A model generated the notes under the pieces. The model did no database searches. It had not been told where the DNA came from and saw only the letters and a program-made list of their open reading frames with translations. Shown piece after piece: positions 251-50,712 of a DNA stretch of 64,000 nucleotides; position 1 is the stretch's first letter, and the number at the start of each line of letters is the position of its first letter. The DNA is taken from the IMG/VR virus record IMGVR_UViG_3300032167_000097. One strand, given 5' to 3'. This stretch comes from an uncultured virus (IMG/VR IMGVR_UViG_3300032167_000097) (taxonomy: Duplodnaviria > Heunggongvirae > Uroviricota > Caudoviricetes). The position numbers were made by a program, and so were the translations under genes.

Positions 251-3200
251 TTCTACTCCTTTTATACTGATAAAATATTAGTTTGGTCTAGTAAGCCATA
301 TATCTTGGTGTTACATATTCCTTTAATTTTCTTTCTTCTACATCAATTACTTCCAGTCTATTTGCCGGAATATTATTTTCTTTGGAAACCTCTCTACTTG
401 CTCCATAAGAACTCCATGCCCATACATAATATGGTTCGCAGGTTTCTTTATCTCTTACTTCATAAAATATTTTTGATGCCATAATTTATCTCCTAAATCA
501 AAGTAAAGTTTTATTCTATAGGTATCATTCTTGCCATATTATTACCCATGTGTTCTACTGCATGAAAATCTGTGATTGCTTGTAAATAATTGCACTTCTT
601 AGTATCACAAACAACACATTCTCCTTGAAATTTACAAACATAATTTCCAGTATATGTCTTACTTTTAAATAAGCATTCTTTAGGTTCATTTGGCATTTTA
701 TCTACAATAATTTTCAATATTAAATCCTCCTGATAAAAGCAAAATTTGATTAACTGTTTAATTAAATTTGTCGTCATAATCTTCTACCAGATCATAATCC
801 CCACACCACATGTCTTGTCTTGTATTATTTTTATTCTCAAACTCACAGTTACAAGGATAGTCGTCTGCAAAATTATTTCTATTATGCTGACAAGTGTAAC
901 AGCATTCATCAGTTGCTAAATCTCTTCTCATTTTTTATCTCCTATCTACAAATAAAAAACTATACTAAATCTGTATAATGTATTAAATGTATAAACCCTT
1001 TTGAATCTTTATAATATCTATACCCCAATGCATTACTGTTTGGCTTTTCAACTTTACCGTAATATTCTAATTCTTCTTCATCTTTACAATCAGTAGCAAA
1101 ATATATTCTATTTTCGTGTCTTTTATATTTTGCACGTAATGGGAATTCTACATTTGTATAATCCATAATTCTTCCTTTCCTCCGAATAAAAGAGTTGTTT
1201 TATTGCCTATCATTTTTCTCTCTTGTTTCATATTTTTCTTTTCCTTGATAAATTTCAAAGACTTTTCTACAATAATCACATTTGCAGTCTGAAACCCCTT
1301 TAGTTATAAGGTTTCCAATCTCTTCTCCAAAGAGAATATTGATTTCTTCGCCACAATACGGGCAATCAACTAAAATCATAAAATTCCTCCATTTGACAAT
1401 AAAATGAAAATTTGATTTACTTCTTTAATAACTCCCATCCCTGATACCACATAGAATTTGAATTTGCATACTCTTTAATCAAGTTAAGCATTTCATTTTC
1501 TTCCGGGAAAAATGGATCACGCTGCTTTGTTGAACTAATCCACCCAAGTGCATTCATCATGAACTGTCCGAATCTCATATCAGGAAATGAATGCTTATGT
1601 ATTTCTTTTAACTCTGCATAAAATGAATCTAATCTATTTACATCTCTCATATTTACTTACCTACCAATATCCATAACCTTCTCTTCTTACTAACTTTCAG
1701 ATTGTCTATAAAATCTAATTTATTCAACTCAACCATTAACTCCGGTTTGTTTCTTCTTATTTCACTAACAGATGGATAGATACCAATATCAACTAAGATT
1801 CTTGGTAAAAATCTTTCTTCTGTATAATATGTTTTTTCTTTTTCAACCCTATTCCAATCGTCTTCATCAAGCGAAAACATTGTATAAGGTTCTACAATTG
1901 GTTTTCCTATTACTATATTTTCTATGTACATTTTCTCTATCCACCTCCTAACGATTATTTTTTGTTTCTTGGAATGGCATAAACGATCTCTGATAATGAA
2001 GCGCCAATTACATAAATCAAAAAACACATTCCAAAGAAAATTTCCCAATCACTAAATATAAATTTTAAAATTTCTAACATTTCACACTTCTCCAAATCAA
2101 ATCAAATCAAATTGATAATTGATGATGTTTAAATCCAATTTAAATTAACTTCATCATTTAGAACTCTTTCATAATCTGCTTTCTTATTCTTTAACTGTCG
2201 TTCTAAACTACGGATTTCACCTTCGATACGTTCTAATACTTTTTCCTTACTCTTGGTAGCACCTTTCTTAACGAAATATTTGCCACCACAATACATTCCA
2301 CCACTATCAATTGCTACGTGCCAATAGTCGTTCTCATCATATTCCCAAATATTCTTGCCGGAATGCTTGTCTACTTCATTAAAATCAAACAAGAATTCAA
2401 ACTCATCAAAGTTCTCATCTGTTAATTCAATGTACTTGTCGCCAAAATATGTATCTACCATATACCAAGTATCATCGCTTTCTCTGTGACTAACTTTAAA
2501 AGTCCAATTAAAGCAATGATATAAATTGTCCCAAAATAATGAAGGTCTATATCTTTTGTCTGGTTCATGTGTATATAAACCAGTCTTTATTAACTTCTCT
2601 GCATTCTCTTTTGATAGCATCTATTTACCTCCTAAACCAAACCGATATTTTATTTAGTATTTTTTATTATCTTATTAAGCCACTCTTTTAAATCATTAAT
2701 AATGTCGCTATACATCTCAACGATTTCACAGCCATATTTTTCACTATATTCTTCTTCTAATTTTTCAATTTTTTCATAAACATCATTAATGGTTATACAC
2801 GGCATATTAGTTCCTCCATCAAACTGCATTTCTATTTACCATACATGTAGGTCACAATAATGACCTTCTAAATTAAATAGTGGTTGAAATTCACAATTAA
2901 TTTCATCTCTTCTTGATTCCATTGTGAACTCAAAGTTACCATTTAATTTTCCTGTGCCAGTAACACAAATGTTATCTGTCTCTATATCTCCAGTAATTAA
3001 TCTTGCTTTTGCCACTAATTCATAATCGTAATATGGCTTAAATGAATCACAAGAAATATTGACTGCTCTTTTATCTTCCTGCTTTTCATATTTTGGATAA
3101 CAACCATTTGAGCCTGTAGTTATATAAATCGTGTCAGAATCTTTATTGATTCTAAATAAACCAATAAGAACTATATTCTTTTCATCTCTTTCTCTTAAAA

Positions 3201-4262
3201 TAATCTGTCCTTCCAACGGATAATAATAGGAAGGAAGAATATTATTTAATCTTACTTCTTTCATTTTTTTCACCTCACGATAAAACGGCACTTTTATTTA
3301 CTTAAATCTTGACCAAATATCTTCTTATATGATCGTTCTGTTAACCATTCACAATATTTCGCACAATCTTCTTCATTAAGGAATACTGCTCTGTATGAAT
3401 TTGCTTTCTCATAATCAAAATCAGAAGATGCATATACCTCACCTGAAACTTCGTAAACATCACAATTATCCTCATTCTCAACAGTATAATATCTGTTATA
3501 AAAATCAGCATTGCTATCAGAAGAAAAATTCTTTTTTCTTACATAGATTTTTGAAAGTGTTGCTTCTAGAGGATAATACTTGCAATAACATTTGGCACAC
3601 TGACAATCTTCTGTATACTTTTTGCCTTGCGGTGAAGAAAAATGTATTTTTCTATCATCATCACACTTATCACATTTTTCTCTATACATCCTGATATATG
3701 CTGCTTTCCAACCAACAGTAAGATAGTCACCTAATAATTGATGTAGTCTTGCTTTCTTCCATTTTTCTTCTGACTCTTTTGCTTTTCTGATTGTAGTTTC
3801 TGCTTCACGCTTCGCTTCTTTTACTTTGTTTTCATATTCTTGAATAATTTTATTCTTATCTCTCTTAAAGTCTTCGAGTTCGGCTAACTCTTTTTCCAGC
3901 GATGCTATTTTTTCTTTGATTTCATCTTTAACAGAGTTTCTTAAAGCATCTTTAAATTTTTCTACTTGTTGTTCGAACTCACTAGGTTTTCCCCAGTAAT
4001 CATCATAGTCATAATACATATTCTTTTCTTCACCTCATCAAATCAAACTTTCATCTACTAATAATAATCATCATGATCATCTTCTCTATCTAAAATTCTT
4101 TGAATAATTTTCTTCTGTTTATTATTTAATGTGCTGTAGTCCAATTCAAATTCACTACAGCTTCTACGTCTATTCCATCCGTCATCACAATCCCATGAAT
4201 GACGGTATCTGCAATGGTCACATGCACTCATTTTTTATCTCCTAATCAAACTTTAATTTATG

Positions 4263-4540
4263 ATACATGATTGACTTCACTCTCAGCCTCACCCATTGCC
4301 TTTACGCATGGCGATAATTCAGCTTGTCTATCGGAGAGCAAGGGGGTTGGTGTTTCCCGTCCCAGCTTACGTTGGTATTTACTCACGGCGTTCGACCTAC
4401 ATTCACATAAATGTATAAGAACTTTTTGTAGTGTATCGCTACTCACCTATTAAGAGCACATTTCTTTAACGTCCCGTACTATGTACGACCAACGAATCCG
4501 ACCGCCAATCACAGCCGTGGTATGTTATCTCAACCAGACG
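4263..4540 (-). ncRNA. Candidate structured non-coding RNA
   Basis: GC-richer island with several hairpins (CGTAC-ATA-GTACG; TACATT-N6-AATGTA; GTA-GCGA-TAC GNRA loop), no convincing ORF, bounded by motif A sites. Confidence 0.45.
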
Positions 4541-5783
4541 ATCAAACAAAACTTTTATTTATAGTTAATCTCTTCAAATGTATTTGTTTCCGGATTGTAT
4601 CTATAAGGCAATCCATTGGGGGCATAATACGGATAATGCACCCTGTAGCCACCGTATGTATAATCTTCGATGTATACTATTCTTGTTGCCGAATCATAGA
4701 CTAAATTTCTTCCAATATTTTTAAATTGTGCAAACTGATTGGATGATATATTTTCACTATTTGATACATTTACTTGAACTGGCGGCTCAAGCGAACAACC
4801 AACTAAAGATAATGTTAAAATACAACCAATTAAACAAATCATTATTTTTTTATTCATAATGTTTTCTCCTTTAAAGATTCTAATCAAACTCAGTTTTTAT
4901 CTACTACAACTTCATATTTATCATCAATATTAATTCCAATGACTTTACATAATTTATTGAAATCAACATTGATTTGTTTATCTGCAATCATGGTATAAAA
5001 AATTCCATTATTATAATCACACATTGGTTCATAACAATATTTTGCATCTGAAGAAAAACAATCTAGCAATTTATCTCTCTCCACATAATGCTCATAATGA
5101 TGACCATCACAGCTATGACAAATCCATCCATATCCTTTAGGATGTCTCCATCCACATTGTTGTGGAGAATATTTTTCTTTATCACTTCTAAGTACTCTTC
5201 CACAAATTCTACATCTTACATGGTGCGGTTTACTTTGCCAAACCCTTTGAGTCCAATCTTCGTATTTATTCCAAGACCAACAATAGAATTTATCAAACAA
5301 GTTATTGCTAATACTAAACATCATAATTTACTCTCCAATCAAATTTTTATGCTCTAAAGCTAATACAATCTGATGTGGTAGTTATATATGGACTATATGT
5401 GGCAATAGTTGTCTTACCTGAAACATCATTGGAAATCATATGGTAGAGTTTTAAATAATCATCAACTGACATTTTCTTAATTTCTGCATACAGTTCTTTT
5501 ACATTTTCAAAAGTTTTATCATACTTCTCTACCTTTTCTTTCATGTCTACGAGCTTTTTAGCAAAATCATGATTTTCTCTTTTAAGATTTTCAATATGCT
5601 TATCCTTCTGAACACAAAACTCAGCAAGCTTCTGTTCTTTATAATTGTTGAGATATTCATCAATAGGATTAACTTCTTCTACTTCAGTTTCAGTTACTTC
5701 TTCTACATTCTTAAATTCTTCACTCATTATTTATCTCCTTTACTCATCAAATCTGTTTTTTATTGGGTTATATAAACCCATAT

Positions 5784-6164: not shown

Positions 6165-7574
6165 TTAATTCGCCTCCTATAATACTGACCAATTTGGCTT
6201 TCTATTTACTTCATTAACAACATATAAATTGCTACCGGATAATACATGTAATCTAAAATTACATTGAATAAGAAGTACCATCTGTAGAACTTAAAATCTT
6301 CAACTTTGTCACTAAATGCTGACATATTTGCTTGCTTAATGCCACTATAGAGACAAGTAAATACCTGTAAGGCAGAAAGGATTAACATGTATGTCGTACC
6401 AAGTTTTGTTCCTAACACTATGTAAAAAATGATAAAAAACAGTTCTAAGATCCATGTCATTATAAGTGCCGCAACCTTACCTTCTTCTTGGTATTCACCC
6501 ATATTTACAAGTGACTTTTGATTCTTTTCAATTAATTCTTGAATCTTTTTCATATATAATTTTTTACTTAACATCTTTGGTGTATTCTTAACTCTACAAA
6601 AGAGTAATACAAATAAAATTGTTAATGCTAAAATCTTCATCTCATTCCTCCATCAAACAGATTTTTTATTTAGATAACATCATACTCTTTAGTTCTTGTT
6701 CTCTATCAAAAACCAACTCGCTATAGCCTTTAAATCCTAAATCTTGCTCTAACCATTCGATTCTTGGATTGTCTTCGACCTTATAAATATGTTCAATTTC
6801 TACTGCTTTAAGAGCGTCTTTATAGACAATTCCTCTACCTATTGGAAATAATTCAAGATATACTCGTTTCTTCCAAAAAGTTTTCTCACCTTTGAATCCA
6901 TTTATATATCCAATTCTCTTAGCTAAATCTTCAAATACTGTTTCTTCATTATCATATTTTTCAACATAATTCTCAGGAACTTCGCCATATCTATAACAAC
7001 AACGCCCACTTATTTTTTCTACTTTTACCCATTCACCATTTATGTTGAGTCTTACATTTATTTTTTGTGTATAAACTGCTTTCATTTGACCTCCTAATCA
7101 AATCTCGATTTGGTTTACTTTTCTTCCTTTGGTATTATTTCTGCTTTGCTACAAATAAAAGCAAAAACTAACAAAGAACAAATGCTTTCTACGCACATTA
7201 ATACATAATTGAAAATTGGCACATTGTTAGTTACTAATGCTCTAACCATAGTCGTGATTATTAGTAATGCACTCATAACAAATAACCATTTCAATACCTT
7301 TATTAATGTATTTATTTTTTCCACATTTCTATTATCCATTACACTCTCCTTAATAACACACTTGTTTAATTTTGTTCAGTTTCTGCCATAGGTATAAAAT
7401 CCTCGAATCCAGAACTCTCGTTACAGTTGTATTCAAAATTAGCGTAGCTCTGCCATCTCCGATCTGCTTCTGCTTTCTTCCTATAACATGTACTCTTATA
7501 AGGACAATTATTGCTTGTACAAAGCGTTATGTCTGCCATCTTGCGCCTCCCGTCATCTTCTCCCAAATAAAAAC

Positions 7575-7928
7575 TTACTTTGATTTACTTCTTTTCTTCT
7601 TTTCTTTTATATTAAGCTTATTCAATTCTCTAAGAATATTACTGTTGATAATATTCATGATTACTTCATAGTTTCCATATTCATTACTATAAAAAGGTGT
7701 ATATACAGAACCATTAGTCGTATAAACATCTAATGTTACTTTCCCACTTGGTAATTCAACACTGATAATTCCTTCTATCGTTGTGATTTTATGATTGTGT
7801 TTATATACCGGGAAAGTATATCTCCATAAATCATCATCTGCATTTCTAACCCTTCTGAAACCGTATCTAATTAATTTTGATTCTGAAGGATATAACATTT
7901 TGTATTTTTTATTGATTAATCGTTCCAT
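7575..7928 (-). CDS. Hypothetical phage protein
   Basis: 117-aa ORF overlapping the nrdG 3' end. Confidence 0.6.
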   Translation of the reverse strand: MERLINKKYKMLYPSESKLIRYGFRRVRNADDDLWRYTFPVYKHNHKITTIEGIISVELPSGKVTLDVYTTNGSVYTPFYSNEYGNYEVIMNIINSNILRELNKLNIKEKKKRSKSK

Positions 7929-14248: not shown

Positions 14249-14779
14249 TTATCTGATATAATTTTTTAAATAATATTCAAAGTATCCTCTTATGAACAAT
14301 CCTGAATATTTAATGTCCGGCATAAAGAACACCGGAATATTATATTTAAACCAAAAACTATGAATCGCACCCCAATAAGATTTCTTATTATACTTAGTTT
14401 TGTAATTGCCTGTTGCAATATCTGAATAATTGGCATTCTCAACGAGTAATACTTTATCTTTTGGTGCAAGACACAATTCTTTCTCAAATCTGTCTCTTTC
14501 AGTTGTTAGATTCCCACTTAATTCTTCAAGACTGCCTTTGCGCTCTATGGCCACTTTATTCATAAAATATAAATCTCTTGGTATTCCAAGCTTTTCATTT
14601 TTAGGTATCATAAAACTATAATCGCCACGATCAAGTGCTTTGGTTTTATATTTGATATTCTTCTTATCAAAGTATTCAAGTATATGATTATTAACACGTT
14701 CCCTGGTATCTACAAGGATAATCATAGAGGAGATTAACTCCTCCATTTCCTTGTCCGTATATTTATAAACTTCTATCAT
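14249..14779 (-). CDS. ERCC4-domain nuclease
   Basis: ILVDTRE, LDRGDYS, IERKGSLEEL; start MIEVY overlaps the dnaE stop (ATGA). Confidence 0.9.
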   Translation of the reverse strand: MIEVYKYTDKEMEELISSMIILVDTRERVNNHILEYFDKKNIKYKTKALDRGDYSFMIPKNEKLGIPRDLYFMNKVAIERKGSLEELSGNLTTERDRFEKELCLAPKDKVLLVENANYSDIATGNYKTKYNKKSYWGAIHSFWFKYNIPVFFMPDIKYSGLFIRGYFEYYLKNYIR

Positions 14780-17217
14780 AAATCTGTACCATCCTTTACA
14801 ATATATTTCTGCAGCCAATATTCATATTTATCTGGCACAGCCCTATAAATCTTCTTACCGGTTTCTGGATTAATCTCTCCGGTAGGTTCTTTTTTGTTAT
14901 CCTTCTTAATAGAAGAGATAAATAAAATGTCGTTTTTATTGAATGGGTCTGCATTGAATCCTCTTGCCCACATCTTAACTTCTCTTGTTTTTCCTGTACG
15001 AATTTCGTGCAATTTGACGTTTATTATTGTTTTCTTGATATCTAGTTCGCTAACGTAAAACAGATGCTTATTTACTTCAGAATTACTGTATGTAATATAG
15101 CCTAAACATTCATTTTCATAATGTAAATGATTATATATTGTTGTATTAGGATACTCATACACGTTCACCAATTCTCTTAATAAGTCCAAAGTATTAACCT
15201 TAGTAAACATTTTTTCAGTTTCTTTTTCGGCATACTTTTTAACCAATTCTTCACTGCATTTAATTTCGTTTAGTTTATCCTTTTTGAATTGTTTCTTACC
15301 GTAAATATTGTTGAATAATTCAACTTGAGTAAGTAACATATTAGGATGACCAAACTCTTCAAAGAAGTTTAATTTAATTAATATTTCAAGCTGCCTACTA
15401 TTTACAGATGTGTTCTGAATATCAATAAGCAAGTCAATAAATGTTTCATATTTATTATCTCTTAATTCATATAACTCATCTGCCATCTGTGAGTTACAGA
15501 ACTTAATTGATTCAATACCTTTGTAAATACCACTATCATTACATGAATATTTCGCAACAGAATGTCTAAACTTAATTGGATAAATTGTAATTCCTAATTG
15601 TTTGGCCAAAGCAGTTCCATTATTAATATCATCATCATTATTAGCATTGTTAAGATATGCTGTAATAAACTCTCTTGGATAATAATATCTTAAATATCCA
15701 CACAAATAACCAATCATTGAATAACCGGTAGAATGGTTGTATCCAAACTGATAATTAGATGAGTCTTCAATAATCTGCAAAAATGTCTTAGCCTCTTCTT
15801 CTGCTGTTTCTCTAGGCTTATCAGACTTACTACAATATCCTTCAAGAATACCCGGCAGAGCTTCTTCAAGTCTGTCTTTCTGTTTACGACCAATTGCTCT
15901 ACGAATATTATCAGCTTCTGAACCACTTAACCCACATATTTCTGTAAGGAATTTAATAGTGTCTTCCTGAAACACCAGGAATCCGTGGTTGTCTTTCAGA
16001 AGTTCATCAATAATTTCTGACGGATTTTTATTTTCCTCTCTTGCAAGTAACCTCTCTCTATAACTTTCACCGGACGGTCTAATACTTGCATTCACTAATG
16101 ATAAGTCGTTTACTTGCTTACAACCCATTTTCTTTAATGAATCATAGGCAAATTGCGATTCGAACTGGAAGACTCCAACAGGGCTATCGGTTATATGCTG
16201 CCACACTTCTTGGTCATCCCAATCAATTTCGTGCGATTTAGGATATTTAATCCCTGCCAACTCACAACAATCTTTAATAATTTCTACGTTCTTTAATCCA
16301 AGAATATCATATTTAACCAATGATATTTCGTGAATCTCTTCCATGTTGATAGAAAGAATACGCTTACCATCATTCCAGAATGTTCCATAATTGTCTGGTA
16401 ATGTTACAGGACTACAAATAATTCCTGCCGGATGCATTGATTGAGAAATTGCTGTATTAACCAAACCATCAAAATAATAAAATATATCAGGATACTTAGC
16501 CTTTGTTTCTTCAGGGTTGACTTCGTATTCTTTCTTGATTCTTGCAATATTATCAAGCGAGTACGGATTATTTTTAATGTCTTTATTAGTTTCTAACCAC
16601 TTATCAGATAAAGCCCTACCAATTTCATCAATAGTACCCTTGTCTGATATCGTTCCTATTGCTAATACATACGCAGTCTTGTCTATACCAAATTTCTCTA
16701 TGATATGTTCATATACTAAATGGCGTTGTGTTGGAGAAATATCAACATCAATATCACCAATTTCTTTTCTATTTTCATTACAGAAACGAGAAAAAATAGT
16801 ATTCCATGTTAAAGGGTTTACATCAATAATATCAGTAAGATATGCTATCATTGAGCCGCCAACAGAACCTCTACAGAACCCAACCGGTATTCCATTCTCC
16901 CAACACCACGAAACAAGTTCTGACATAAATAACATAAAGCCAACCATACCAATTTTCTTAAATACACGCATTTCTTCTTTAACCATCTGCTTGTATCTAG
17001 GATCTGGTTTGATTACTCCACGTTTAAGTTTGTCTTGATACATATCATTAATTCGTTTTTTAAGAACCTTTTCTTCATCATCATAAAGAATAGGATACTT
17101 AAATGATGTATCTAACTCAAAACCTTCTACTGAGTCAGCCATACGATTAGTATTCTCAATAGCTTCTAATATCACATCCATAGGCAATGAAGCCTGCTGC
17201 TTAAACATTTCAACCAA
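14776..17217 (-). CDS. dnaE: DNA polymerase III alpha subunit, polymerase part (in frame with upstream PHP part across a TAA)
   Basis: RGSVGGS, GDIDVD, HPAGII, VKYDILGL, GVFQFES, LVFQE, YQFGYNHS. Confidence 0.92.
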   Translation of the reverse strand: MVEMFKQQASLPMDVILEAIENTNRMADSVEGFELDTSFKYPILYDDEEKVLKKRINDMYQDKLKRGVIKPDPRYKQMVKEEMRVFKKIGMVGFMLFMSELVSWCWENGIPVGFCRGSVGGSMIAYLTDIIDVNPLTWNTIFSRFCNENRKEIGDIDVDISPTQRHLVYEHIIEKFGIDKTAYVLAIGTISDKGTIDEIGRALSDKWLETNKDIKNNPYSLDNIARIKKEYEVNPEETKAKYPDIFYYFDGLVNTAISQSMHPAGIICSPVTLPDNYGTFWNDGKRILSINMEEIHEISLVKYDILGLKNVEIIKDCCELAGIKYPKSHEIDWDDQEVWQHITDSPVGVFQFESQFAYDSLKKMGCKQVNDLSLVNASIRPSGESYRERLLAREENKNPSEIIDELLKDNHGFLVFQEDTIKFLTEICGLSGSEADNIRRAIGRKQKDRLEEALPGILEGYCSKSDKPRETAEEEAKTFLQIIEDSSNYQFGYNHSTGYSMIGYLCGYLRYYYPREFITAYLNNANNDDDINNGTALAKQLGITIYPIKFRHSVAKYSCNDSGIYKGIESIKFCNSQMADELYELRDNKYETFIDLLIDIQNTSVNSRQLEILIKLNFFEEFGHPNMLLTQVELFNNIYGKKQFKKDKLNEIKCSEELVKKYAEKETEKMFTKVNTLDLLRELVNVYEYPNTTIYNHLHYENECLGYITYSNSEVNKHLFYVSELDIKKTIINVKLHEIRTGKTREVKMWARGFNADPFNKNDILFISSIKKDNKKEPTGEINPETGKKIYRAVPDKYEYWLQKYIVKDGTDL

Positions 17218-17223: not shown

Positions 17224-17922
17224 TTAAGATTTATATGTTAAATCAAAGGAATCTTCATCTGTGTATACTATCTTTTTCGCCTTTTGTAATATACTTCTAC
17301 ATTCAGCTTTGTAAGAATCTAAACTATGTGTGTCAGTACCTGCAATTAATGGTATGTTATATTTTTTTGAAGCCATAAGCAGCATTGAATTATAATGAAT
17401 TTGGTCAGCATTATTATGTGGCTGAACTTCATAATAATCATAAGATTGTAATAATCTATCATATATGTCTTTGCATGCGTTCTCAGATTGTGGATACTTG
17501 CTTAACGGCGATGCTAAACAAGCACTGATTTTTATAATATTATCTGATATAGCAAAGTACTCATCAAAACTCAAACGTGGCTTATAATAGAAATGATCTT
17601 CTTGAGTAGATAAATCTATTAATGTATTAAGTTCTTTTACACCATCATGGTTCTTTGCAATAAGAATTGTATGATAATTATCACGAACTTTTTCATCTAA
17701 TGAGGCGGTTAAGTAAACTTCACAAGCATGAATATATTTTAATCCTTTTTCATTTGCATACATTTTCTTTTCAATCCAATTATATGTATTACCATGTTCT
17801 GAAAATGCAATTGCTGTCTGTCCTAATTCAACTGCCTTATTTACATATAATTTATAATTAGTACAACTATCAAGCAAAGAATTTTCTGTATGCAAATGAT
17901 ATACTGTATAATTACGATCCAT
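17224..17922 (-). CDS. dnaE: DNA polymerase III alpha subunit, N-terminal PHP domain
   Basis: YHLHTENSLLDS, AFSEHG, FYYKPR, SACL, GTDTH; ends at in-frame TAA 17224-17226. Confidence 0.9.
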   Translation of the reverse strand: MDRNYTVYHLHTENSLLDSCTNYKLYVNKAVELGQTAIAFSEHGNTYNWIEKKMYANEKGLKYIHACEVYLTASLDEKVRDNYHTILIAKNHDGVKELNTLIDLSTQEDHFYYKPRLSFDEYFAISDNIIKISACLASPLSKYPQSENACKDIYDRLLQSYDYYEVQPHNNADQIHYNSMLLMASKKYNIPLIAGTDTHSLDSYKAECRSILQKAKKIVYTDEDSFDLTYKS

Positions 17923-17924: not shown

Positions 17925-18860
17925 TTATGATACCTTTCTCTTAAAAACTTTCTTCTGAATAACATCTAAATAATTTGGTATGTTTTTTAAAATAAGTTCA
18001 TCAATAATTTTAGAATCATCAACAGTGTATTTTGCATATCTGACATCTTTACATAACATTGGTTGTAAACCAAAATTTTGATTAACCTTATTTAAATAAT
18101 GTTGTACCTCATCCATAGTCCAATCACCAAAACATATTTCCCAATTATTATGACTGCCACTACAGCATTTTGAACCATCATCAAGCATATGAGTGCAAAA
18201 ACCCATCTCATCTAATTGATCAATTTTTTCACATCTGCTCATACTACGAATGCTTGCCAAAGACTCGATTGCTCTAGTTATAAATCTATATTGTCTCTGT
18301 GTATGATATAACTTACCATTAAATACTTTATCTTTTGCATCTATACAAACTGGTTCGCTTAAACATAGATTTTTTAATATTTCATATTTCCAATACAAAT
18401 AACCCTTTTCATCTTCTGCATGTGACTCAATATAAATAGGATATTTTTCTCGTTTATCAATATGACCGTCACCCAATGTTCCGGCAAGAATAATTGAATA
18501 TTGTAAAGGTGTTAATGTTGCGTGTTTTGCATATGTCCTATTAGAAAGGTTATGTTTTTCTCTTGTCCATTTTTCTAAAACTCGTTTACTATAACCAGTT
18601 TCTTCTGCTAATTGCTCACAACTTTTACCTTCAACAATAATTTTTTGATAACACCAGTCATAATCTTGATATTCCGCTTTAAAATTAGGATTATTATCAC
18701 GAATATATTTCTGTGGTAATCCTAATTTTGATGCCTTTCGTAAAATAGCTTGTTCTGTATGACTTGGTATTTTCTTCGCAATCTCATTTGCTGATAACAT
18801 TTTTTCATAACACTCTTCTAATATTTTTACTTCTTCGTCTGTCCATAAAATTTTAGCCAT
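17925..18860 (-). CDS. Free-standing LAGLIDADG homing endonuclease with N-terminal HTH/Myb-like region
   Basis: IILAGTLGDGHI and THMLDDGS motifs; YLYWKYEIL; WTDEE N-terminus. Confidence 0.75.
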   Translation of the reverse strand: MAKILWTDEEVKILEECYEKMLSANEIAKKIPSHTEQAILRKASKLGLPQKYIRDNNPNFKAEYQDYDWCYQKIIVEGKSCEQLAEETGYSKRVLEKWTREKHNLSNRTYAKHATLTPLQYSIILAGTLGDGHIDKREKYPIYIESHAEDEKGYLYWKYEILKNLCLSEPVCIDAKDKVFNGKLYHTQRQYRFITRAIESLASIRSMSRCEKIDQLDEMGFCTHMLDDGSKCCSGSHNNWEICFGDWTMDEVQHYLNKVNQNFGLQPMLCKDVRYAKYTVDDSKIIDELILKNIPNYLDVIQKKVFKRKVS

Positions 18861-27820: not shown

Positions 27821-27889
27821 TTGTTTGCTAGGATATACCGCCTAGCATTCGGTTTTATATTAAGAGGAGGTATGTTGTTTCTGTATGAG

Positions 27890-33132: not shown

Positions 33133-34116
33133 TTAAAAAATGATTTTTGACATAATATCACACGATTTTGTTTCACCCTCCTTTTTTTGTCCTCTAATAT
33201 ATAATTCTGTCGTTTGAGGGCTGCTATGATCCATACAGCTCTGAACAAAATATATATCATGTGTTTCATTTAACAACTGCGTTCCGTAAGTAGCTCTTAA
33301 TTTATGAGGTGTAATATGTTTTCCTTCTATTGATTTCGAATATTTATTTACCACTCTATAAATTGAACTCTGATCCATCCTTGTTCTTTGATTAGAAATA
33401 AATAAAGCACTCTCATTTACGCCGTCCAAAATAATTTCTCTTTTTATTAACCAATCCTTTATATATTTCATTAAATCTTCTGATATTAAACGAGTACGAA
33501 TTTTATCTCCTTTTTCATTAGTAGTAAGCGTCATATTATCAAAATTAATGCTGCTTACATCTAATTTATATAAGGCAGAACATCTAATTCCCATGTTTAA
33601 GAAAATCATTATAATTAATAAATCTCTTTCTTTCCACGCTTCTTGTCTTGCAATCGCCCTGTTTGTTCCGGTTCCACTTTTTACCGAAGATAGATATTTT
33701 TTTATTTCTCTTTTTTCAAGATATCCCTTTTCTCTTTTTTCTTTTGTATCCTCTCTTTCTTTAAATTTTGGTCTTTCAATATATTTCATTGGATTATCAG
33801 AAGTTTTATTGCTTGCGATTAAATATGTCGCAAATTTTTTCAATCCGGAATAAACACTTATTTGATATGGAGTTGTCATGTCTTCGATAGTAGATAAAAA
33901 ATTAGTATAATCATCAAGTCCAATATCTACGATTTCTTTTTCTGTAAAATTAATAAAATTTACAACATAGTTTAAATAATCATATTTGGTTGAATATGCT
34001 AATCTACTTCCCATATAATTATAAAAACCTCTCAAATAATTCTTATCTGTATTATTTTGTATTATTTTATCTATTTTCTTTTTATATTTATTATCATATG
34101 CTTCTTTTCCATTCAT
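33133..34116 (-). CDS. Tyrosine recombinase (XerC/D-like; YopP/SroD position)
   Basis: MGIRCSAL (R), EKGDK (K), TPHKLRATYGT (HxxR), DHSSPQTTELY (H, Y): full catalytic set. Confidence 0.92.
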   Translation of the reverse strand: MNGKEAYDNKYKKKIDKIIQNNTDKNYLRGFYNYMGSRLAYSTKYDYLNYVVNFINFTEKEIVDIGLDDYTNFLSTIEDMTTPYQISVYSGLKKFATYLIASNKTSDNPMKYIERPKFKEREDTKEKREKGYLEKREIKKYLSSVKSGTGTNRAIARQEAWKERDLLIIMIFLNMGIRCSALYKLDVSSINFDNMTLTTNEKGDKIRTRLISEDLMKYIKDWLIKREIILDGVNESALFISNQRTRMDQSSIYRVVNKYSKSIEGKHITPHKLRATYGTQLLNETHDIYFVQSCMDHSSPQTTELYIRGQKKEGETKSCDIMSKIIF

Positions 34117-36361: not shown

Positions 36362-36994
36362 ATGCCAGATTCACGTTCTGAAAGAGTAAAACGATTTGCC
36401 GAAATGCACACAAAGGCCAGAGATAAGGCTGGAAGATCTCAGGAATTTATGGCATTGGAGCTTGGTGTAGCAAAGAAAACAGTTCAAAACTGGGAAAAGG
36501 GTATTAGCTCACCTTCCTTTTTTCAAAGTCTTGAATGGTTCCGGGTTCTTAATATAAACCCGATGCCTTATTATTTATCTATTTTATATCCGGATAAATA
36601 TAGTACAATACAAAATGCATCTACAGATGAAGAAGTTAATACGGCGTTTTCCATTTTAACAGAGCAATTATCTATAAATGATAAAAAAGCCTTTCTGTAT
36701 TTTTATTATGGAGAACATGGCAGCCCTGCCAATACACTTATTCAGTTATTGTTAGCTCATGCCCACACTCCATTACAAACTCGTATTACCCAGGCAACCT
36801 TAACTTATCACATGTATGAAATGGAGAAGGAGCGTGATAATTTGATTTGTACAGATGCAATACTTCCTGATATAGATCAGTTAAATAAATCCATTATGAG
36901 AGCCAGGATATCTGCTATTCACCATGAATATGGTTACACTCTATTAAATGAAGATGATGAAACAGAATTTGAAGACGAAGAAGAGTCAGTATAA
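36362..36994 (+). CDS. XRE-family HTH transcriptional regulator
   Basis: SQEFMALELGVAKKTVQNWEKG; AGGAG RBS; the only convincing plus-strand gene. Confidence 0.85.
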   Translation: MPDSRSERVKRFAEMHTKARDKAGRSQEFMALELGVAKKTVQNWEKGISSPSFFQSLEWFRVLNINPMPYYLSILYPDKYSTIQNASTDEEVNTAFSILTEQLSINDKKAFLYFYYGEHGSPANTLIQLLLAHAHTPLQTRITQATLTYHMYEMEKERDNLICTDAILPDIDQLNKSIMRARISAIHHEYGYTLLNEDDETEFEDEEESV

Positions 36995-37012: not shown

Positions 37013-37582
37013 TTATTATATATGTTATATTTACTTATTGTTTTTCTTCATAGTTTTCAACACATCATTATACGACATACCAAATAATTGACCAACAAAG
37101 AAAATTTGCATGTCTAGTCCTTTGGCTCCATAACGTGATTTATTTATACTAAGAGTTTCCAAACATTTTTCTAATGTTATATTTGTATTCAAGTCTTTCA
37201 TTTTGTTTTCCTTTTGTTCTATAAAATTCTCAATGCTTTCTTTACAATCTTTACAATAACATTTTTCTGGATTAAACATCTTGTTCATATTTGTCATAAT
37301 ATTCTGTGTCGCCGTATCAAAAGCAACCCGGTTATCATTTGTTGGATTAATATCTTTTCCATAAATATCAATCGTATAATATGTATTTCCTTTTATTTCT
37401 TTTCCACATCTACTACATATATATTTTTTCATTTTTGTTTCTCCTAATCATAAAACCCAACTTGTTTATATCATATGTTGCAAACAAGTTCATCAAAGAA
37501 TACTTTTATTCACATACGATAAACTTGTTTGTAAACCAGTTTACAAACAACTTCCTGTTGAATCAAATTTCACTTTTATCAA

Positions 37583-38341: not shown

Positions 38342-39103
38342 TATTAACTCCTTTCATAAAAGTAAAGAAAACTAGAATTCTATTCTACTCTTTCTAAATT
38401 ATCTTTTGCAAAAATACTACCAACATCACAAATATAACCATATTCATCATGAATTAATTCATTGTATATTCCACCATCTTCTCGACATTCTTTTTCAAAA
38501 TTATAAGCTTCTTTTTCTATAAGAATATCTCCTTCTTTTAATTGTCGAAGGTTTGCAATACAATCTGCTTTTACTTTATATTTATCTCCTATCATATCAA
38601 TACCTCCTAAATCAGCCTTTGATTTGTTTGCCATCTTTAATATACACTCCATCAAAACCATCTTTAGGACGCATGCCTGTTTCCCAATAACTCATTGCTG
38701 GAATAACTATCAAATCTCTTTTGCGTTTACCACATTTAATACATTCTGCTCTCCAACATTCCTGAAAGCAATCATCTTTAAAAATTGTATCTTCATAAAT
38801 TCTTTTCTTATATTGATGAAAACAAATCAATTTCTTCATACTTACCCCTCCATCAAACCATTCTTTTATCTACTTTATATATTCTTGAATTATTTCTTTA
38901 ATCTGGCTTACTTTATCAGCAGTGAACCAATCATCTCCACCATCATCTAAAGTCTCCCATACTTCGTTATCAATTCTTTCAAGAATTTCTTCTAATGTTT
39001 CTTTTAATTCTTCTTTCATAATTTCTCCTATCCTACTAAATCAAACCCGTCTTTTATTATTTTAACAAGCTATCTTATTCATTTCAACAATATTTTCCAT
39101 TTC

Positions 39104-39774: not shown

Positions 39775-40841
39775 GTGATTAATTTATTTTGTCTAGTTTT
39801 GCTTATCAAACGAGACTTTTATTTGCTCTCTGCTTTTACTTCCGCTTACCAAATCAACAAAGGTTTATTTGCCTTTTCTACCAAAGAATAACTATGTCCC
39901 TTTCTATCATTGCTTTCTATAAACTCTTTAATAAGTCTTTCTGACTCTTTTACAAACTCATCATATGAAAGAGATAAATCAAACAAATCTGTTCCATCTA
40001 CATAATCGTAAGGCATTTGTGTGTCACCTTTATACCCATATCCAGTATCTTCATTAGCTACATAGAAATCGTATGAATATGCTAATTCAAATACATCATC
40101 GTCATAACCGTCATAATAATATTTTATTAAAACGTCCACGCAAATCTCACCAATTCGAATAAAACCAATATAGTTGTCTACGAGTTCCCGTAGCTTCTCT
40201 TTATCGTTCGTATAATTTCTTTCTGTTAATTCATTCCAATTAAATTTCATAATCCTCTACCTCCTAATAAAATGTGAGTTTTATTTACTCTCTTCATAAT
40301 CGTTTACTGTGCGACTTAATACACTAACCGCCCATTCGTCCATGTGTCCATACTGTGATATCTGTGAAGCAATATGGATAATATCCTTCAATTGTTTTTT
40401 GTTTTCATTTACACCAACATCTTTAAAATATGTATAAAGAGCATTGGATAAAGTAACTAATTCACCAGATTTAAATTCAATAATTGCACCACTTTGTACA
40501 AATTTATCATCACCGTTTATAATCTGTTTAATTTTTGCCATGTCTATTCCGCCTTTCTATAACATTGCTTGAATGGTATCTATCAAATTCCAGTATTCCA
40601 TTCCATATAACTTTGCATCATTACCACCTTCATACCGGTCTTTCTGTTCGGTTTCATCTGCACAAGGAATTTCAATTCCTTTTTCATCAAGCAAGTCTTC
40701 AAACAGTTCTACAATTTCTGTTGCAAGCTTACTCTTTTTATTTTCTTCAATCTCTTCATCTGTAAGATTTTGAATTCTTCTTAATTCTTTTACATAATCA
40801 TTCATGTTGTTTACCTCCTAAACCAAAGACGAGTTTTATTG

Positions 40842-41174
40842 CTACTCTTCATCCCACACTAAATTTACATTGCAAAGTGGGCAATTTTCTTCTCCACGAT
40901 GTACTTGATGTTTGTTTCCTAATGCTTCACACACAGGACAAGAATACTTGATATAAGCACCATTTGGCATATAGTGATATGCTAATGGTTTAACTCTTGT
41001 TATTTTCTTGTGTACTGGAAGATTTTCTCCTTCTTCTTCACCTGCTACTGTACCTTCAATTACTGTTGGTTGATAATCTAATTCATCATAAAGCATTCGC
41101 TTTCTCATTCCATCAGTTTCAAGCAGCCAATTAGGTGTGTTTGATTTCATTCTATCTGCATCAATTAATCTCAT
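40842..41174 (-). CDS. Zn-ribbon phage protein (paralog of 53524..53856)
   Basis: MRLIDAD N-terminus, CPVC...CPLC. Confidence 0.75.
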   Translation of the reverse strand: MRLIDADRMKSNTPNWLLETDGMRKRMLYDELDYQPTVIEGTVAGEEEGENLPVHKKITRVKPLAYHYMPNGAYIKYSCPVCEALGNKHQVHRGEENCPLCNVNLVWDEE

Positions 41175-42897
41175 ACTTTATTCCTCCTAACCAAATTCCG
41201 ATTTTATTTATTTAAACTCTTCTGATACTTCCATTGCTTCAAACTCTTCTTTTCCAAAAATTTCAATGTAGTTATATGTATCATTTTCCAGTTCTAAATC
41301 AACTGCTGAATTATTATCATATAATTGTATATTTCCTTTGTAATAAGCATCTGCAACTTTATCTTCAGCTTCTAAATAATCTTCAGCTTCAACAACTACC
41401 GTTCTTGTTAATAATTCTGTTACCTTTTCTGCATATTTCATATTCAATTCCTCCTTAATTAAATCCTGATTTGCTTTACTCGATTGTAAACACCGTTTCT
41501 ACAATACAATCCGTGTGCCAAAAATATTCTGTATCATCTGTTCTACAATATCCATTGTGTTCATTGCTACCAAGAGAGATACGTTCATCTGGTGAGTAAT
41601 CCATTTTACTTTCTAACACGTTTACACTTCCTTTAAGAAGATTGATTTCCCATTCGATCTGTTCTTTTGCTTCTTGTTCTGTTCCTCTAACTACCAAAGT
41701 TAGTCGTTTACTTTTAGTATCAAATTTTGTTACTGTATAAATACGTTTCATATCAATTCCTCCTATCATAAAATCTTGCTTTTATTCATACTCATTTATA
41801 CATAAGCTAATTCCATATTTACATAATGTTGCTCTGTTTATGTACAAAGTCTTACCCTCAAACCTAATTGCTTCTTCTTCCTTGTCGTAAAACTCTGCCT
41901 TTGGTGGACGCAATCTTCCAGTAAATACTCTATTTCCGGTATCCCATAAAGATTCTGTTACAAGAGTTACATCTTTTGATAATTTTGTTTTTTCAATCAT
42001 GTTATCTACCTCCATCAAATTGTGTTTTGGTTTACAGTACAAACCACCAGTTATTGCATGTGCTTTGTAGCTTATCTGTATCAATCTCATCTCTGTCGCA
42101 GAATCTTTCAATTCCTTCTGCGGAGCCTCTTGCTTCTGAATATCTACAAATCCAAATCTCTCCATCGAAATCATCAATCTCAATCTGCTCGTCACCACTG
42201 ATTTCTCTTTCAAGTTCCTCTGCCCTTAATATCAATTCATCTGTTCTATCCATATCAACACCTCCATCAAATCACTCTTCTATTGCTAGTTCAATAAGTT
42301 CTTCAATTTCATCATATGGTATATTAACATCCCACCAATCAATCTCTGATGTTCCACCATCAATCTCTACTGTTGGCGAAATACAACACTCACCATAAGC
42401 AGCTTCAATATGATTGGTTGGAAATTCAATACTAATTTCCATTGATACCGCATCAGGATATTCTGGAATATTAAATTCATATAACATTTCCTTTGGTGCT
42501 GTAAAATACAACGTTGTAGTTTCATATTCTTCGTCATCATATCTTTCATCAAATTTAATTCTTTTATCAATCATAATTAATTCCTCCTTAAAATCGTCAT
42601 TCTATCAATACTCATCAAACACATCTACAAATCTAATTCCATATTCTTCTAGCCTTGCAAGAATAAAATCTCTTACATCAGAAGAGAAATCTGACGCATC
42701 ATATTTATCAATTTCAAAATGCTCAAACAATTCTTTCAGCATTTCATAAGCACCACCCCAAAGAATATCCTCGTACTGTTGATCCGTGGTGCAAGCAAAT
42801 ACTTCTTTCCCGTTTAATTTAACTTTCTCCCAACAATATCTGCCCATATTTTGTAGCTCTTTATCATCTTGTAATTCATCTATTGATTTAAATTCTT

Positions 42898-48449: not shown

Positions 48450-48711
48450 TATTTTTTCTCCTTCCTTTTGTTTAATTTTGAATAGTTAAAAGTAGAATTT
48501 TATTTAGTAATACTTTTCAATACAATATCCACCACGATTAAACCAACACATTGCAGAATTTATATCATAAAATCTACAAGCCTTTGATTTATCTTCTGTA
48601 TAAAGTGGATTGCCATATTTATCTACACCAGATACATAAATGAATTTTCCATTTTGCATTTTATGTACTATCCAACATCCCATATTGTTTCCTCCTTATC
48701 AAATGAAACTT

Positions 48712-50712
48712 TTATCCATAATACTCTGTTTCAAATTCAAAACGAATTTCATAATCATTTTCGCCATCATAAAGTTCACATGTGCCAACACAATCACTAA
48801 AAGTATCTTCATTGCATAATTTCAAATTCTCTTCACTATCATTTACCGGATAAATACCAACTATAAATTCTGTTCCCATTCGTAGCAGCTCGGCTATTCT
48901 CTTAATAGGGAACATCTCATCAACTTCTTCTTCGGATAAATCATACAAGTCAATTTCACTTCCATTTGTATTGTTATATAAAACCCACGGAATTAAATCA
49001 CCCTTACATCGACAATCTAAACTGTTAGGATCATAGTCAATGTCTCCATGAATGTCTAATGTCAATTCAAAGTTTTGTCTATCTTCCGCATAAGATACCT
49101 TTAACCAGTCGGGTGTATATCCTATATTGTTTTTACTTTTTGCGTTTAGATATAATCTCATATCTCTTACCTCCGTTTAATCAAATATAATTTTTATTTA
49201 CCATTCTTTTTGTTCTGCAAGTAAGTCTTCAAGATATGAAACATCATCCATCAAAATTATTTCATCATCCGTTTCCATTAACATTCCAAATTCTGTTCCG
49301 GTAACAGACAAGGTATAATGATCAGGAACATACATAAGCATTTTCTTTAACTCTCCTACATTTGTTGCAGTTAATCCTAAAGACTCTCCGTTTATTGTTA
49401 CTGGTTTCCACATAAAACATATCTCCTTTCATCAAATACAAATTTTATCTATCAACTTCTTTTGCAATTTTATTTTTATGCTCATTATAATAGTCTTCTG
49501 TGTACCAACAATAACAAAAATCAAGGTCTTCATATTGTTTTACTTCAACAATTTCAAAATTATCTTTCGTTATATCATTTCTGTACCAACCACTATCTAA
49601 TATGGTTTCAATATGATTTTCTGCATCTTTAATTGTTTCAAAAGTGTTATCCTTAATAAAAGAACCATTTTTACTCATAATGCCTGTACAATCGTTCCAG
49701 ATATATCCTAAACATTTTTCTTTCTCATCAACACATTTAATTATAAATCTAATATACTGTTCTTCACATTTACTTTGATAACCTTGTTCAAAAATTTCTT
49801 TATATAAGTTTTTTCCATCTTCTGAAATTCTAAAGTTATCATAGTCATCACAATGAGTACATTCACAAGGATGTTTGTGATAATTCTTACACAGTAGACA
49901 ATTTTTAATTACTTTTTTGCCTTTATAAGTCATCTTAATCTCCTTTCGACCATCAAACACGAATTTGATTATCATTATTAATCATCTGTTTTTTTGAAAT
50001 ACCAGGGATATGTATACTTTTCAAAACCTTCTCTTATAATATCAATAACATAATTCAAAGTTTCATCCTTTGAAATATATTCATAATTTAATGGTGCAAT
50101 CGAAGACACATCAAACGCCTCGCATATATATAAAGGTTTGCGTTCTTTGAGCCTATTTTCTGCTTCTTTTTTACTTATTCTTTTATATTGTTCGTGGACT
50201 TCATTTATCTTCATAATAACCTCTCTTTAAAGCCTCTAATTCTGAATAAAGGCTTTTCGTTTCTTCGTACACTTGTTCAAAAAGGTCTTGAAGTCTTTTG
50301 GCTACACCTAATTCAACATCTTCCCTATTTACAACCAATGTTCCGCAATCAGGGCAACATAAACAATCTTCGTCACTGTCAAGTGCCAAAGTTATTTTAC
50401 CTGCGTCAAAATCGTTCTCCCATTTGCATTTACAAACAGGACATTCTGTTGTTTTTTCATAAATTAAGTATTTCATTATTTTTTCTCCTTCTCTTAATAA
50501 AATGTTGGTTTGGTTTATAGTTCTTTAAATTTAATTTTTCTTCCACAATAAGGGCAAAACTTTAAAAAGTGTTCTTGCTCTGTACTTCCAAAATGAAAAG
50601 CGTCCTTATATTTTATATTAGGTTGACAATCCATTTTTTTATACTTTACCCATCTAGTAGCATCGTTCAAATTACTAATTGTAATTTTCCATTGACAATA
50701 CTCTTCCATCAT
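48712..50712 (-). other. Array of short hypothetical genes (accessory array 3)
   Basis: ORFs separated by motif A at 48486-50497. Confidence 0.8.

Follow-up and report, generated by a model that had tools for sequence, protein, structure and literature searches.

What do the short inverted repeats between the genes of this phage do? The question is raised by a stretch of 64,000 nucleotides from an uncultured virus of the Caudoviricetes (IMG/VR record IMGVR_UViG_3300032167_000097); this whole stretch is here called the window. Three arrays of short genes in the window are punctuated by an 18-bp dyad, in which two 6-bp arms enclose a 6-bp centre. A preliminary description took the dyads for the sites of an integron-like cassette system. 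In this study, we compared them with those of related phages, and four findings were new. By sequence comparison, relatives keep the 6-bp centres in order even where no similarity can be detected between the intervening genes. Some single genes lie between two sites that have a common centre. The Bacillus phage SPbeta has the same dyad, separate from SPBRE, the element bound by its master repressor MrpR. In four SPbeta-like Bacillus phages, mosaic breakpoints fall more often at junctions that carry a dyad than at other junctions. The dyads are probably crossover points by some mechanism. A description of the dyad was not found in the literature searched on SPbeta-like phages and phage gene cassettes, which did not take in the 1999 SPbeta genome paper.

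A dyad between stop codon and ribosome-binding site

The motif ATMAAA-N6-TTTKAT had 23 exact matches in the window, while 100 dinucleotide-preserving shuffles gave a mean of 0.49 and a maximum of 2. When one mismatch was allowed, 39 matches were found, about 34 of them in intergenic junctions and 5 within long genes (14922, 20677, 26039, 27209, and 58650). We then counted gene starts with a dyad (at most one mismatch) no more than 70 nt upstream. Of the 44 gene starts that belong to the arrays, 26 had one (14/23, 7/14, and 5/7). The count was 0/39 in the replication and nucleotide-metabolism core at 7.6-37.45 kb, 1/10 at 42.65-48.48 kb, and 1/41 in the low-GC stretch at 50.75-64 kb. These results confirm two claims of the preliminary description, namely that the dyads lie at the gene junctions of the short-gene arrays and that no core gene junction has one. 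The example coordinates that it gave, 1186, 3280, and 49952, were also correct.

Nearly all genes of the window are on the minus strand, and all site sequences are given as read on that strand. The order on this coding strand is stop codon, N6, right arm (usually TTTGAT), 0-5 nt, GGAGG, and ATG. The stop codon abuts the left arm or is embedded in it, as the TAA, TAG, or TGA of ATAAAA, ATAGAA, or ATGAAA. The dyad thus touches or overlaps the upstream stop codon and lies a few bp before the next ribosome-binding site (RBS), as had been described. It had also been described that well-formed copies differ in the spacer. All 32 strictly defined sites did differ in N6 (32/32), which is not significant alone, as few chance collisions are expected.

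Array 1 has its head at the junction dyad 7567..7584 (ATCAAA-gtaagt-TTTTAT), just after the NrdG-side genes. Its junction dyads include 6652..6669 (ATAAAA-aatctg-TTTGAT), 5746..5763 (ATAAAA-aacaga-TTTGAT), 1186..1203 (ATAAAA-caactc-TTTTAT), 733..750 (ATCAAA-ttttgc-TTTTAT), 497..514 (ATAAAA-ctttac-TTTGAT), and 270..287 (ACCAAA-ctaata-TTTTAT). Array 2 has junction dyads at 42266..42283 (ATAGAA-gagtga-TTTGAT), 42014..42031 (ACCAAA-acacaa-TTTGAT), 41768..41785 (ATAAAA-gcaaga-TTTTAT), 41190..41207 (ATAAAA-tcggaa-TTTGGT), 40822..40839 (ATAAAA-ctcgtc-TTTGGT), and 40267..40284 (ATAAAA-ctcaca-TTTTAT), and the dyad at 39805..39822 (ATAAAA-gtctcg-TTTGAT) is followed by a terminator-like hairpin at 39774-39746. 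In array 3, junction dyads are present at 48698..48715 (ATAAAA-gtttca-TTTGAT) and 48486..48503 (ATAAAA-ttctac-TTTTAA). The remaining sites of the three arrays are given below with their counterparts in other genomes.

The strict phasing with stop codon and RBS, together with a constant linker of about 40 nt, might be expected of a motif that works at the mRNA level, where a small intercistronic hairpin or protein-binding signal could adjust translation, coupling, or processing. The SAS/ESAS repeats of Cluster K mycobacteriophages adjoin start codons, and the available text proposes a translational role for them (PMC3203893). However, the commonest form of the dyad, ATAAAA...TTTGAT, would form a stem with an A.G mismatch. 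Each half-site varies without regard to the other (A.G or C.T mismatches), and no compensatory change was seen. The stem would be 5-6 A-U pairs, and symmetry under reverse complementation belongs to duplex DNA. Two copies of the dyad, 37492..37509 (ATAAAA-gtattc-TTTGAT) and 37562..37579 (ATAAAA-gtgaaa-TTTGAT), sit in a non-coding control region. Because of the mismatch in the commonest form and the independent variation of the arms, the element appears to be a protein-bound DNA dyad and not an RNA stem, and we regard action in mRNA as highly improbable.

Between the two non-coding dyads lies a 26-bp near-perfect palindrome (about 37524-37550), which is followed by a second partial copy; this looks like a control region beside the divergent HTH_3 gene (36362-36994, plus strand). 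No dyad was found in the mrpR operon promoter. At 36-51.5 kb, promoter-like sites were not enriched (60 against 81.7 expected), and there were 7 terminator-like sites against 4.3 expected, none of them coincident with a dyad. As a candidate promoter operator, TTGTTTACAAA was rejected, as it was not enriched (5 matches against 6.6 expected); the de novo dyad scan was insensitive. An Rfam scan of the window returned two tRNAs and nothing else.

Centres kept slot by slot in Clostridial and Bacillus phages

The genes at 34116-33133, 33096-31852, and 31839-30907 of the window, all on the minus strand, stand in the yopP-yopQ-yopR(mrpR) order of Bacillus phage SPbeta (SPBc2). The first encodes a YopP homologue of 327 aa, a Xer-like tyrosine recombinase of the integrase family and the candidate enzyme discussed below. 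The second encodes a YopQ homologue (phrog_5732) with a weak DndB-like Pfam match below the family cut-off, and it is part of the conserved module. The third encodes a 310-aa MrpR/YopR/SroF-like protein (MrpR_N_CB) with a tyrosine-recombinase fold, a homologue of the SPbeta master repressor, which matched the YopR/MrpR crystal structures at E 4e-12. The SPbeta-like features found in the window are this module and a large genome with a PolIII-alpha-type replicase. Homologues of MrpR were found in 40 IMG/VR loci and in genome contigs labelled Lachnospiraceae, Clostridiales, Gemmiger, and Solibacillus. In each of six faeces metagenome runs, 40-70% of the array 1 words were present. Near and distant similarity searches of deposited phages gave no DNA match to the window. 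Because of the module order, the YopR structure match, the Clostridial homologues, and the faeces runs, the window is, as judged from its sequence, an SPbeta-like phage of gut Clostridia.

We next compared the arrays between genomes, where W is the window and G3, G4, and the L-numbers (L015, L071, L121-L123, L133-L153) label the genomes or loci of relatives. In L015, whose NrdG is 60% identical, six consecutive sites follow nrdG, with the centres ACTGAG, GTTTTA, GTTTGA, GTGCCG, ATGCAG, and TATCGG. The window has ACTGAG, GTTTTG, GTTTGA, GTGCCG, ATGCAG, and TATCGG, in the same order and with no extra site. These are the junction dyads at 4883..4900 (ATAAAA-actgag-TTTGAT; L015:11028, and also G3:44566 and G3:45501), 4541..4558 (ATAAAA-gttttg-TTTGAT; L015:12638, one nt different in the centre), 4037..4054 (ATGAAA-gtttga-TTTGAT; L015:13005), 3280..3297 (ATAAAA-gtgccg-TTTTAT; L015:13375), 2818..2835 (ATAGAA-atgcag-TTTGAT), and 2636..2653 (ATAAAA-tatcgg-TTTGGT). 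Over the six sites, 35/36 nt of the centres, 31/36 of the left arms, and 35/36 of the right arms matched. The lengths of the five slots between them were 342/1610, 504/367, 757/370, 462/476, and 182/246 bp in W/L015, and only 1/5 slots showed tblastx similarity at E<=0.01, the one that holds a 310-bp element.

This 310-bp element lies between two dyads at 4245-4559 (minus strand), begins at the 4541 site, and is 91-98% identical in L015. It holds a possible ORF (open reading frame) of 62 codons (4258-4446), has no Rfam match, and gave no fold signal (z-score 0.15). Its word depth in the faeces runs was about 30, against about 5 for its neighbours. A 22-mer from it, at W4530, occurs in 9 IMG/VR contigs, most of them otherwise unrelated; 2 were already known, and most of the 7 new ones are without dyads.

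The series ATGCAG, TATCGG, TATCAA was found again in G3 and in the 1.2-kb contig L071. The ATGCAG centre is common to G3, L015, and L071 with unrelated flanks, TATCGG is common to the same three together with its TTTGGT arm, and TATCAA belongs to the window dyad at 2106..2123 (ATCAAT-tatcaa-TTTGAT; G3:46093 and L071:867). The 18-mer of the ATGCAG site occurred at 7 IMG/VR loci and gave no new relative, L034, L036, and L038 being chance matches; that of the TATCGG site occurred at 76 metagenome loci, of which L071 was the only true relative. The dyad at 7097..7114 (ACCAAA-tcgaga-TTTGAT) shares its centre with G3:44110. At 1399..1416 (ATCAAA-ttttca-TTTTAT), the homology to G3 over the gene 1417-1650 (86% aa) stops at the first base of the site.

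The other two arrays behaved in the same way. In array 3, the series CCAACA, TTCGTG, TTTGTA, ATTATA was matched in G4. The window sites are 50497..50514 (ACCAAA-ccaaca-TTTTAT; G4:2570), 49952..49969 (ATCAAA-ttcgtg-TTTGAT; G4:2983), 49431..49448 (ATAAAA-tttgta-TTTGAT; G4:3178), and 49180..49197 (ATAAAA-attata-TTTGAT; G4:3369). In array 2, the series GACGGG, GAATGG, TTCTAG (a 2-mismatch site), GTGAAA was matched in the same order in L123, whose MrpR is only 40% identical to that of the window. Here, 39040..39057 (ATAAAA-gacggg-TTTGAT) corresponds to L123:9510, 38852..38869 (ATAAAA-gaatgg-TTTGAT) to L123:9713 and L121/L122:3711, and the non-coding dyad at 37562 to L123:10538 and L121/L122:5732. 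An 85%-identical high-scoring segment pair (HSP) with L123 stops at the first base of the 39040 site. The arrays of W and L123 gave no tblastx match at E<=0.1.

The number of centres in common was 4 for W/G4, 2-3 for W/L071, 2-5 for W/G3, 4 for L133/L136, and 2 for L152/L153, where chance would give 0.03-0.13 per genome pair (P from <5e-5 to 6e-3). Every set of common centres was colinear between its two genomes. We compared 150 nt on either side of the 44 same-centre pairs between genomes. No flank similarity was detected in 40 of them, a few of which are surely chance matches; 3 pairs were similar on both flanks and 1 on the left only. The left arm, which holds the stop codon of the upstream gene, was the most changeable part, and the centre and right arm formed a stable island. 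In metagenome contigs that cover the window stretch, 14/24 joint ends lay within 8 nt of a site (such positions make up 6.8% of the stretch), and the short sides of the joints were the sites themselves. The sequencing runs were used as contigs, which cannot show circles, starts, or levels, and stretches that they leave uncovered are uninformative.

Some junctions looked like insertions. L136 has one ACAAAG site followed by a gene X, and L133 has an ACAAAG site, a 72-codon ORF with its own RBS, an (A)CAAAG site, and then gene X. One ORF lies between two AATTGC sites in L143, where L135 has a single AATTGC site. In L153, three successive junctions carry ATCACG, TACACG, and ATCACG. If a circle integrated at a site, a gene between two same-centre sites would be the outcome, and such a gene could equally be deleted by recombination between direct repeats. 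Genes were also found in changed positions. The window genes at 40842-41174, which sits between dyads, and 53524-53856, which sits in the low-GC block, are 110-codon paralogues with 83% identity, and their homology runs exactly from ATG to stop. The likeness of a moved gene in L123 and L137 is likewise confined to the ORF, and a homologue of the gene at 49198-49413 was found one slot further on in G4, again with homology over the ORF only.

The same dyad was then examined in SPbeta, where ATAAAA-N6-TTTTAW had 16 matches in 50 kb against 0.41 expected. Genome-wide, 45 dyads were found at no more than one mismatch, mostly at yoq/yor/yos/yot junctions. They often hold the TAA of the gene within the left arm, and the RBS is further away than in the window. 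Conservation extends outwards in mirror positions (T at -5 in 18/26 sites and A at +22 in 25/26; C/T at -4 with G/A at +21; T/A at -3 with A at +20), which gives a geometry of about 11+6+11 bp. Pairing between the outer arm positions is no more frequent than would be expected of independent positions (at k=4, for example, 16 observed and 14.2 expected), and because of this the SPbeta element also seems to be a protein-type dyad. Three SPbeta dyads (SPBc2 record 76170, 129296, and 99497; L005 and L156) immediately adjoin copies of SPBRE in the promoter regions of aimR, yosX, and yorE, where the two elements may interact.

Four Bacillus phages, SPbeta, phi3T, SPbetaL3, and SPR, keep the order TGTAAG, GATGCA, GTAAAA, AGACTG, GATAGT. 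The slot from GATGCA to GTAAAA measures 812, 812, 2254, and 278 bp, respectively. The 18-mers of GATGCA and AGACTG are each identical in 4/4 phages, with three or four different flanks, and the divergence of SPbeta from phi3T starts inside the right arm of the GTAAAA site. Of 119 ends of megablast HSPs of at least 100 bp, 28 lay within 10 nt of a site, although such positions are 2.2% of the bases. The preliminary description had proposed asking whether breakpoints of gene gain, loss, and reordering in related phages fall within the N6 core. When predicted gene junctions were used as the control, breakpoints were found at 20/29 site-bearing junctions and at 25/125 other junctions (odds ratio about 9).

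Ordered centres, breakpoints, and duplicated sites need only an identical 18-25 bp and no site-specific enzyme. It could be that the dyads bind another phage protein, such as the ParB/DndB-like YopQ homologue or an early regulator, for a regulatory or architectural purpose, and that exchange is a by-product. The dyads would then be the only conserved 18-25 bp between unrelated genes, where crossover could occur via the relaxed homologous recombination of the phage, as proposed for the PeSLs of T4-type phages. Domain matches show that the window encodes recombination functions, namely an AAA_24 protein (23612-24715), a single-stranded-DNA-binding protein, and a DHH protein; we take the first to be Sak4-like and the last to be a RecJ-like exonuclease. 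Some arrays also have no adjacent YopP homologue. The accessible part of the PeSL report gives a precedent in which genes are shuffled, and mini-circles formed, when conserved intergenic motifs recombine with one another (PMC2839356). In laboratory phi3Ts-SPbeta hybrids, 15/16 unique recombination sites were at regions of homology according to the part of the study available (bioRxiv 10.1101/2020.05.06.055103). The two parents are too alike in their common regions for a crossover to be placed on an 18-bp site. However, the identity islands at GTGCCG and TCGAGA sites are sometimes just 15-19 bp, a short length if homology drives the exchange. Centre and arms are equally conserved despite MrpR identity of about 40% and NrdG identity of about 60%, which such a by-product leaves unexplained unless exchange is very frequent. 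It also offers no function for dyad symmetry with a free 6-bp centre. We consider this explanation somewhat unlikely.

Candidate proteins and the favoured reading

The most likely enzyme for the dyads, on present comparisons, would be the YopP homologue at 33133-34116. It aligned to XerA, XerD, and XerH at E 3e-19 to 2e-12 and to IntI4 only at E 1.5e-4, and its best solved relatives were XerA, XerC-like, XerD, and XerH. Alignment to XerA places the catalytic residues at R178, K202, H271, R274, H297, and Y306. These six residues were invariant in 29/29 distinct YopP homologues, which were 23-63% identical. When the YopP homologue was used as a single query against genome contigs, no match was found. 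A previous report lists yopP among the SPbeta-like core genes active in the lysogen and, in its available text, names no function (PMC10516654). The same text states that SPbeta integrates by the serine recombinase SprA (PMC10516654), and YopP is therefore not needed as an integrase.

The second protein with a tyrosine-recombinase fold is the MrpR homologue, which showed no sequence similarity to the YopP homologue. The preliminary description had named the operators of a dimeric repressor as its alternative, and MrpR, encoded nearby, would be a candidate. The dyads could then block early-array transcription in the lysogen in a stoperator-like way. Their occurrence is limited to early-type arrays, the mrpR operon promoter has none, and some SPbeta dyads adjoin SPBRE (aimR, yosX, and yorE). 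When read from seven SPbeta upstream regions, SPBRE is ATACA-N7-TGTAT with a constant A/T centre, a 17-bp dyad with a similar centre-to-centre spacing. In the SPbeta report, MrpR binds SPBRE, many copies of which lie directly upstream of an RBS (PMC10516654), and the stoperators, as covered by the text available, show that repressors can have dozens of genome-wide sites (PMC9283540).

However, dyads and SPBREs are separate sets in SPbeta. The ten MrpR ChAP-seq peaks were all assigned to SPBRE promoters in the text accessed (PMC10516654), and about 30 dyads at the yoq/yor/yos/yot junctions are not among these peaks. The window has no ATACA-N5-9-TGTAT. In the part of the report seen, a single SroF molecule of phi3T occupies an asymmetric 26-bp box, touches 24/26 bp, and reads the central 6 bp (bioRxiv 10.1101/2025.11.27.690993), which is hard to square with a symmetric site whose centre is free. 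The arms are almost the same in phages with MrpR homologues of only 30-47% identity, and the slot-specific conservation of the centres would be left unexplained. These results make the MrpR-like protein (30907-31839) an unlikely binder of the dyads. The operator alternative is disfavoured for the known master repressor, and we think it quite improbable that the dyads are its operators.

A tyrosine recombinase requires the same centre in both partner sites. If the dyads were sites of YopP, the centres would differ within a genome, be constant between genomes, and be duplicated around inserted genes because partner centres must match. In the mechanism that we propose, the dyads would be double-stranded DNA sites of a dimeric phage protein and would serve as crossover points at which single-gene cassettes are swapped, gained, or lost. 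One YopP monomer would bind each arm (6 bp conserved in the window and about 11 bp in SPbeta), and strands would be exchanged across the 6-bp centre. As the roughly 34 sites of one genome differ in centre, they would not recombine among themselves, and the genome would stay intact. When related genomes meet, each site could recombine with its counterpart, and two events would swap the intervening DNA. One event with a circular piece would leave a gene inserted between two same-centre sites. In this way, co-resident phages and prophages could exchange or take up accessory genes singly, one slot at a time, while gene order stays unscrambled and none of their own DNA is deleted.

What we infer here is that a protein binds the dyads, that YopP is this protein, and that the exchange is site-specific rather than homology-driven. 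That the dyads are slot-specific recombination sites of the Xer-like YopP recombinase is a tentative assignment, nearly but not quite probable in our judgement. The wider proposal is more doubtful still, although possible: SPbeta-like phages, from Bacillus to gut Clostridia, would carry a natural cassette-exchange system of 30-45 heterospecific sites per genome, with the centre as slot address and YopP acting on it.

Several observations weigh against YopP-mediated exchange. No recombination product (circle, empty slot, or deletion) was observed in the contig data, which cannot show one. The comparative pattern would look the same if short-homology recombination took place at a regulatory site that is conserved. 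An exact-motif scan gave 2 matches in G4 and 0 in the 137 kb of G3, which has the recombinase (63% identical) and few degenerate sites. L133 and L136 have 10 sites each and no YopP homologue within 10 kb; their genomes have 4 and 3 PF00589 genes elsewhere, respectively. The window arms are conserved over 6 bp only, which is short for a tyrosine recombinase, and outside them conservation is limited to the stop codon and RBS, which occupy the outer positions. Moved genes share the ORF alone and not the flanking arms. A crude test of blastn HSP ends in the Clostridial loci was negative, with 7/280 ends near a site against 3.4% expected, and this test was dominated by the fragmentation of weak HSPs inside conserved genes. 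Among the Bacillus HSP ends, 91/119 (76%) were away from sites, and the counts of 20/29 and 25/125 come from four related phages and are not independent.

Known systems and the remaining window

Judged by the features that define each of them, the element is not an integron, SPBRE, stoperator, or PeSL. It is functionally akin to PeSL shuffling and, if the favoured YopP reading holds, to heterospecific-site cassette exchange. In the text available of Arbiol et al. 2010, PeSLs, like the dyads, are short conserved motifs that separate small non-essential genes in plastic regions. They are points of insertion, deletion, and replacement between related phages, and exchange between nearby copies can release a gene (PMC2839356). 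PeSLs consist of a sigma-70-like promoter and a terminator hairpin with one consensus (PMC2839356), whereas the dyads have no promoter or terminator. In contrast to PeSLs, the dyads are 18-28 bp long, and the 6-bp centre differs from copy to copy but is kept slot by slot across genomes.

The Xer/dif core site has two inverted arms of about 11 bp and a centre of 6-8 bp, and heterospecific lox/FRT sites are used in engineered cassette exchange. The dyads resemble dif in their inverted arms and 6-bp centre, and the same genomes encode a Xer-like recombinase with a full active site. The SPbeta mirror conservation at -5/+22, -4/+21, and -3/+20 fits this geometry, while the window has only 6 bp per arm. 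The dif site is single-copy and resolves dimers, whereas there are 30-45 dyads per genome. The likeness to heterospecific sites would lie in centres that differ within a genome and match between genomes, and in the duplicated-centre insertions. No natural system of many heterospecific sites was found in the literature searched.

Like an integron, the window has arrays of promoterless single-gene units with their own RBS, recombination-site-like repeats between them, and a tyrosine recombinase. The attC site of integrons is 57-141 bp long, is recognised by structure as folded single-stranded DNA, and travels with the gene. In contrast, the window site is 18 bp of sequence-specific duplex DNA, and its variable part is fixed to the slot. 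The window recombinase is Xer-like rather than IntI-like, and the arrays are 3-16 kb from its gene. No attI/Pc platform was seen in the window, where the nearest strong promoter-like site is at 51213-51185. The integron analogy of the preliminary description was thus not upheld: the centre belongs to the slot rather than to the gene, moved genes are homologous over the ORF only, and the site is a sequence-specific dyad of 18-28 bp. Its view that mismatched centres would be tolerated, as in Tn916-type systems, also lost ground, as the data point to centres that must match. Its central idea of gene-shuffling units held in part. Exchange between related phages gained support from ordered centres, unrelated genes, mosaic breakpoints, and same-centre insertions, as did a recombinase from the conserved neighbouring tyrosine recombinase with its intact, invariant active site; the integron-like mode did not.

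Stoperators are 13 bp long with one consensus, and many lie in short intergenic spaces at stop codons. They resemble the dyads in having dozens of copies across the phage genome, in Cluster A mycobacteriophages, as given in the accessible text (PMC9283540). According to the same text, they are asymmetric and are bound by a monomeric immunity repressor that stops transcription elongation (PMC9283540), whereas the dyads are symmetric with a variable centre. SPBRE, too, is repeated in genomes of this phage group; in the portion of that report available, many copies directly precede an RBS, and the protein that binds them has a tyrosine-recombinase fold (PMC10516654). It differs in having about 10 copies at promoters and none in the window, and SPbeta carries both elements. 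The ESAS of Cluster K mycobacteriophages are described as imperfect inverted repeats of unknown function that immediately precede the RBS of non-structural genes and whose spacer varies (PMC3203893). Their arms are 17 bp, their spacer is 4-13 bp, and they are tied to a gene family (PMC3203893), whereas the dyads have a spacer fixed at 6 bp and are not tied to a gene.

The remaining window showed further features. Pfam and PHROG matches identified anaerobic NrdD/NrdG, a PolIII-alpha replicase, a DnaB-like helicase, a primase, and an RNA ligase. The replicase is split on the minus strand into a PHP-domain gene (17224-17922) and a polymerase core (14776-17217), and a LAGLIDADG/GcrA-domain gene (17925-18860, minus strand) lies immediately upstream of the PHP gene. 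An unusual phage cargo is a full-length methyl-accepting chemotaxis protein gene at 28646-30259 (minus strand; sCache_3_3 and MCPsignal), which has no homologue in G3 or G4. The tRNA genes in 27747-27982 (minus strand) are Met(cat) and Gln(ttg), the second of 94 nt. The block at 50750-64000 comprises 41 short genes with 25% GC and is without dyads or homologues in G3 or G4. It contains strong TTTACA-N17-TATAAT promoter-like sites, such as that at 51213-51185, which follows a terminator-like hairpin (51282-51242). Another repeated word, AAAATTAAAC (often ACTAAAnAAAATTAAAC), occurs at about 30860, 30520, 30400, 34990, and 48470 and at many places in G3. It sits a few bases upstream of -35-like hexamers and may be a phage-specific promoter or UP-type element.

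The comparison has brought to light an abundant sequence element of SPbeta. If the dyads are exchange sites of YopP, this would explain the fast turnover of accessory genes (anti-defence and host-takeover) in large temperate phages at constant gene order, and YopP, which is encoded by one of the SPbeta core genes, would be assigned a function. If the centres truly act as addresses, they would be a ready-made orthogonal set of recombination sites for engineering. The idea is directly testable in B. subtilis, a model-phage setting.

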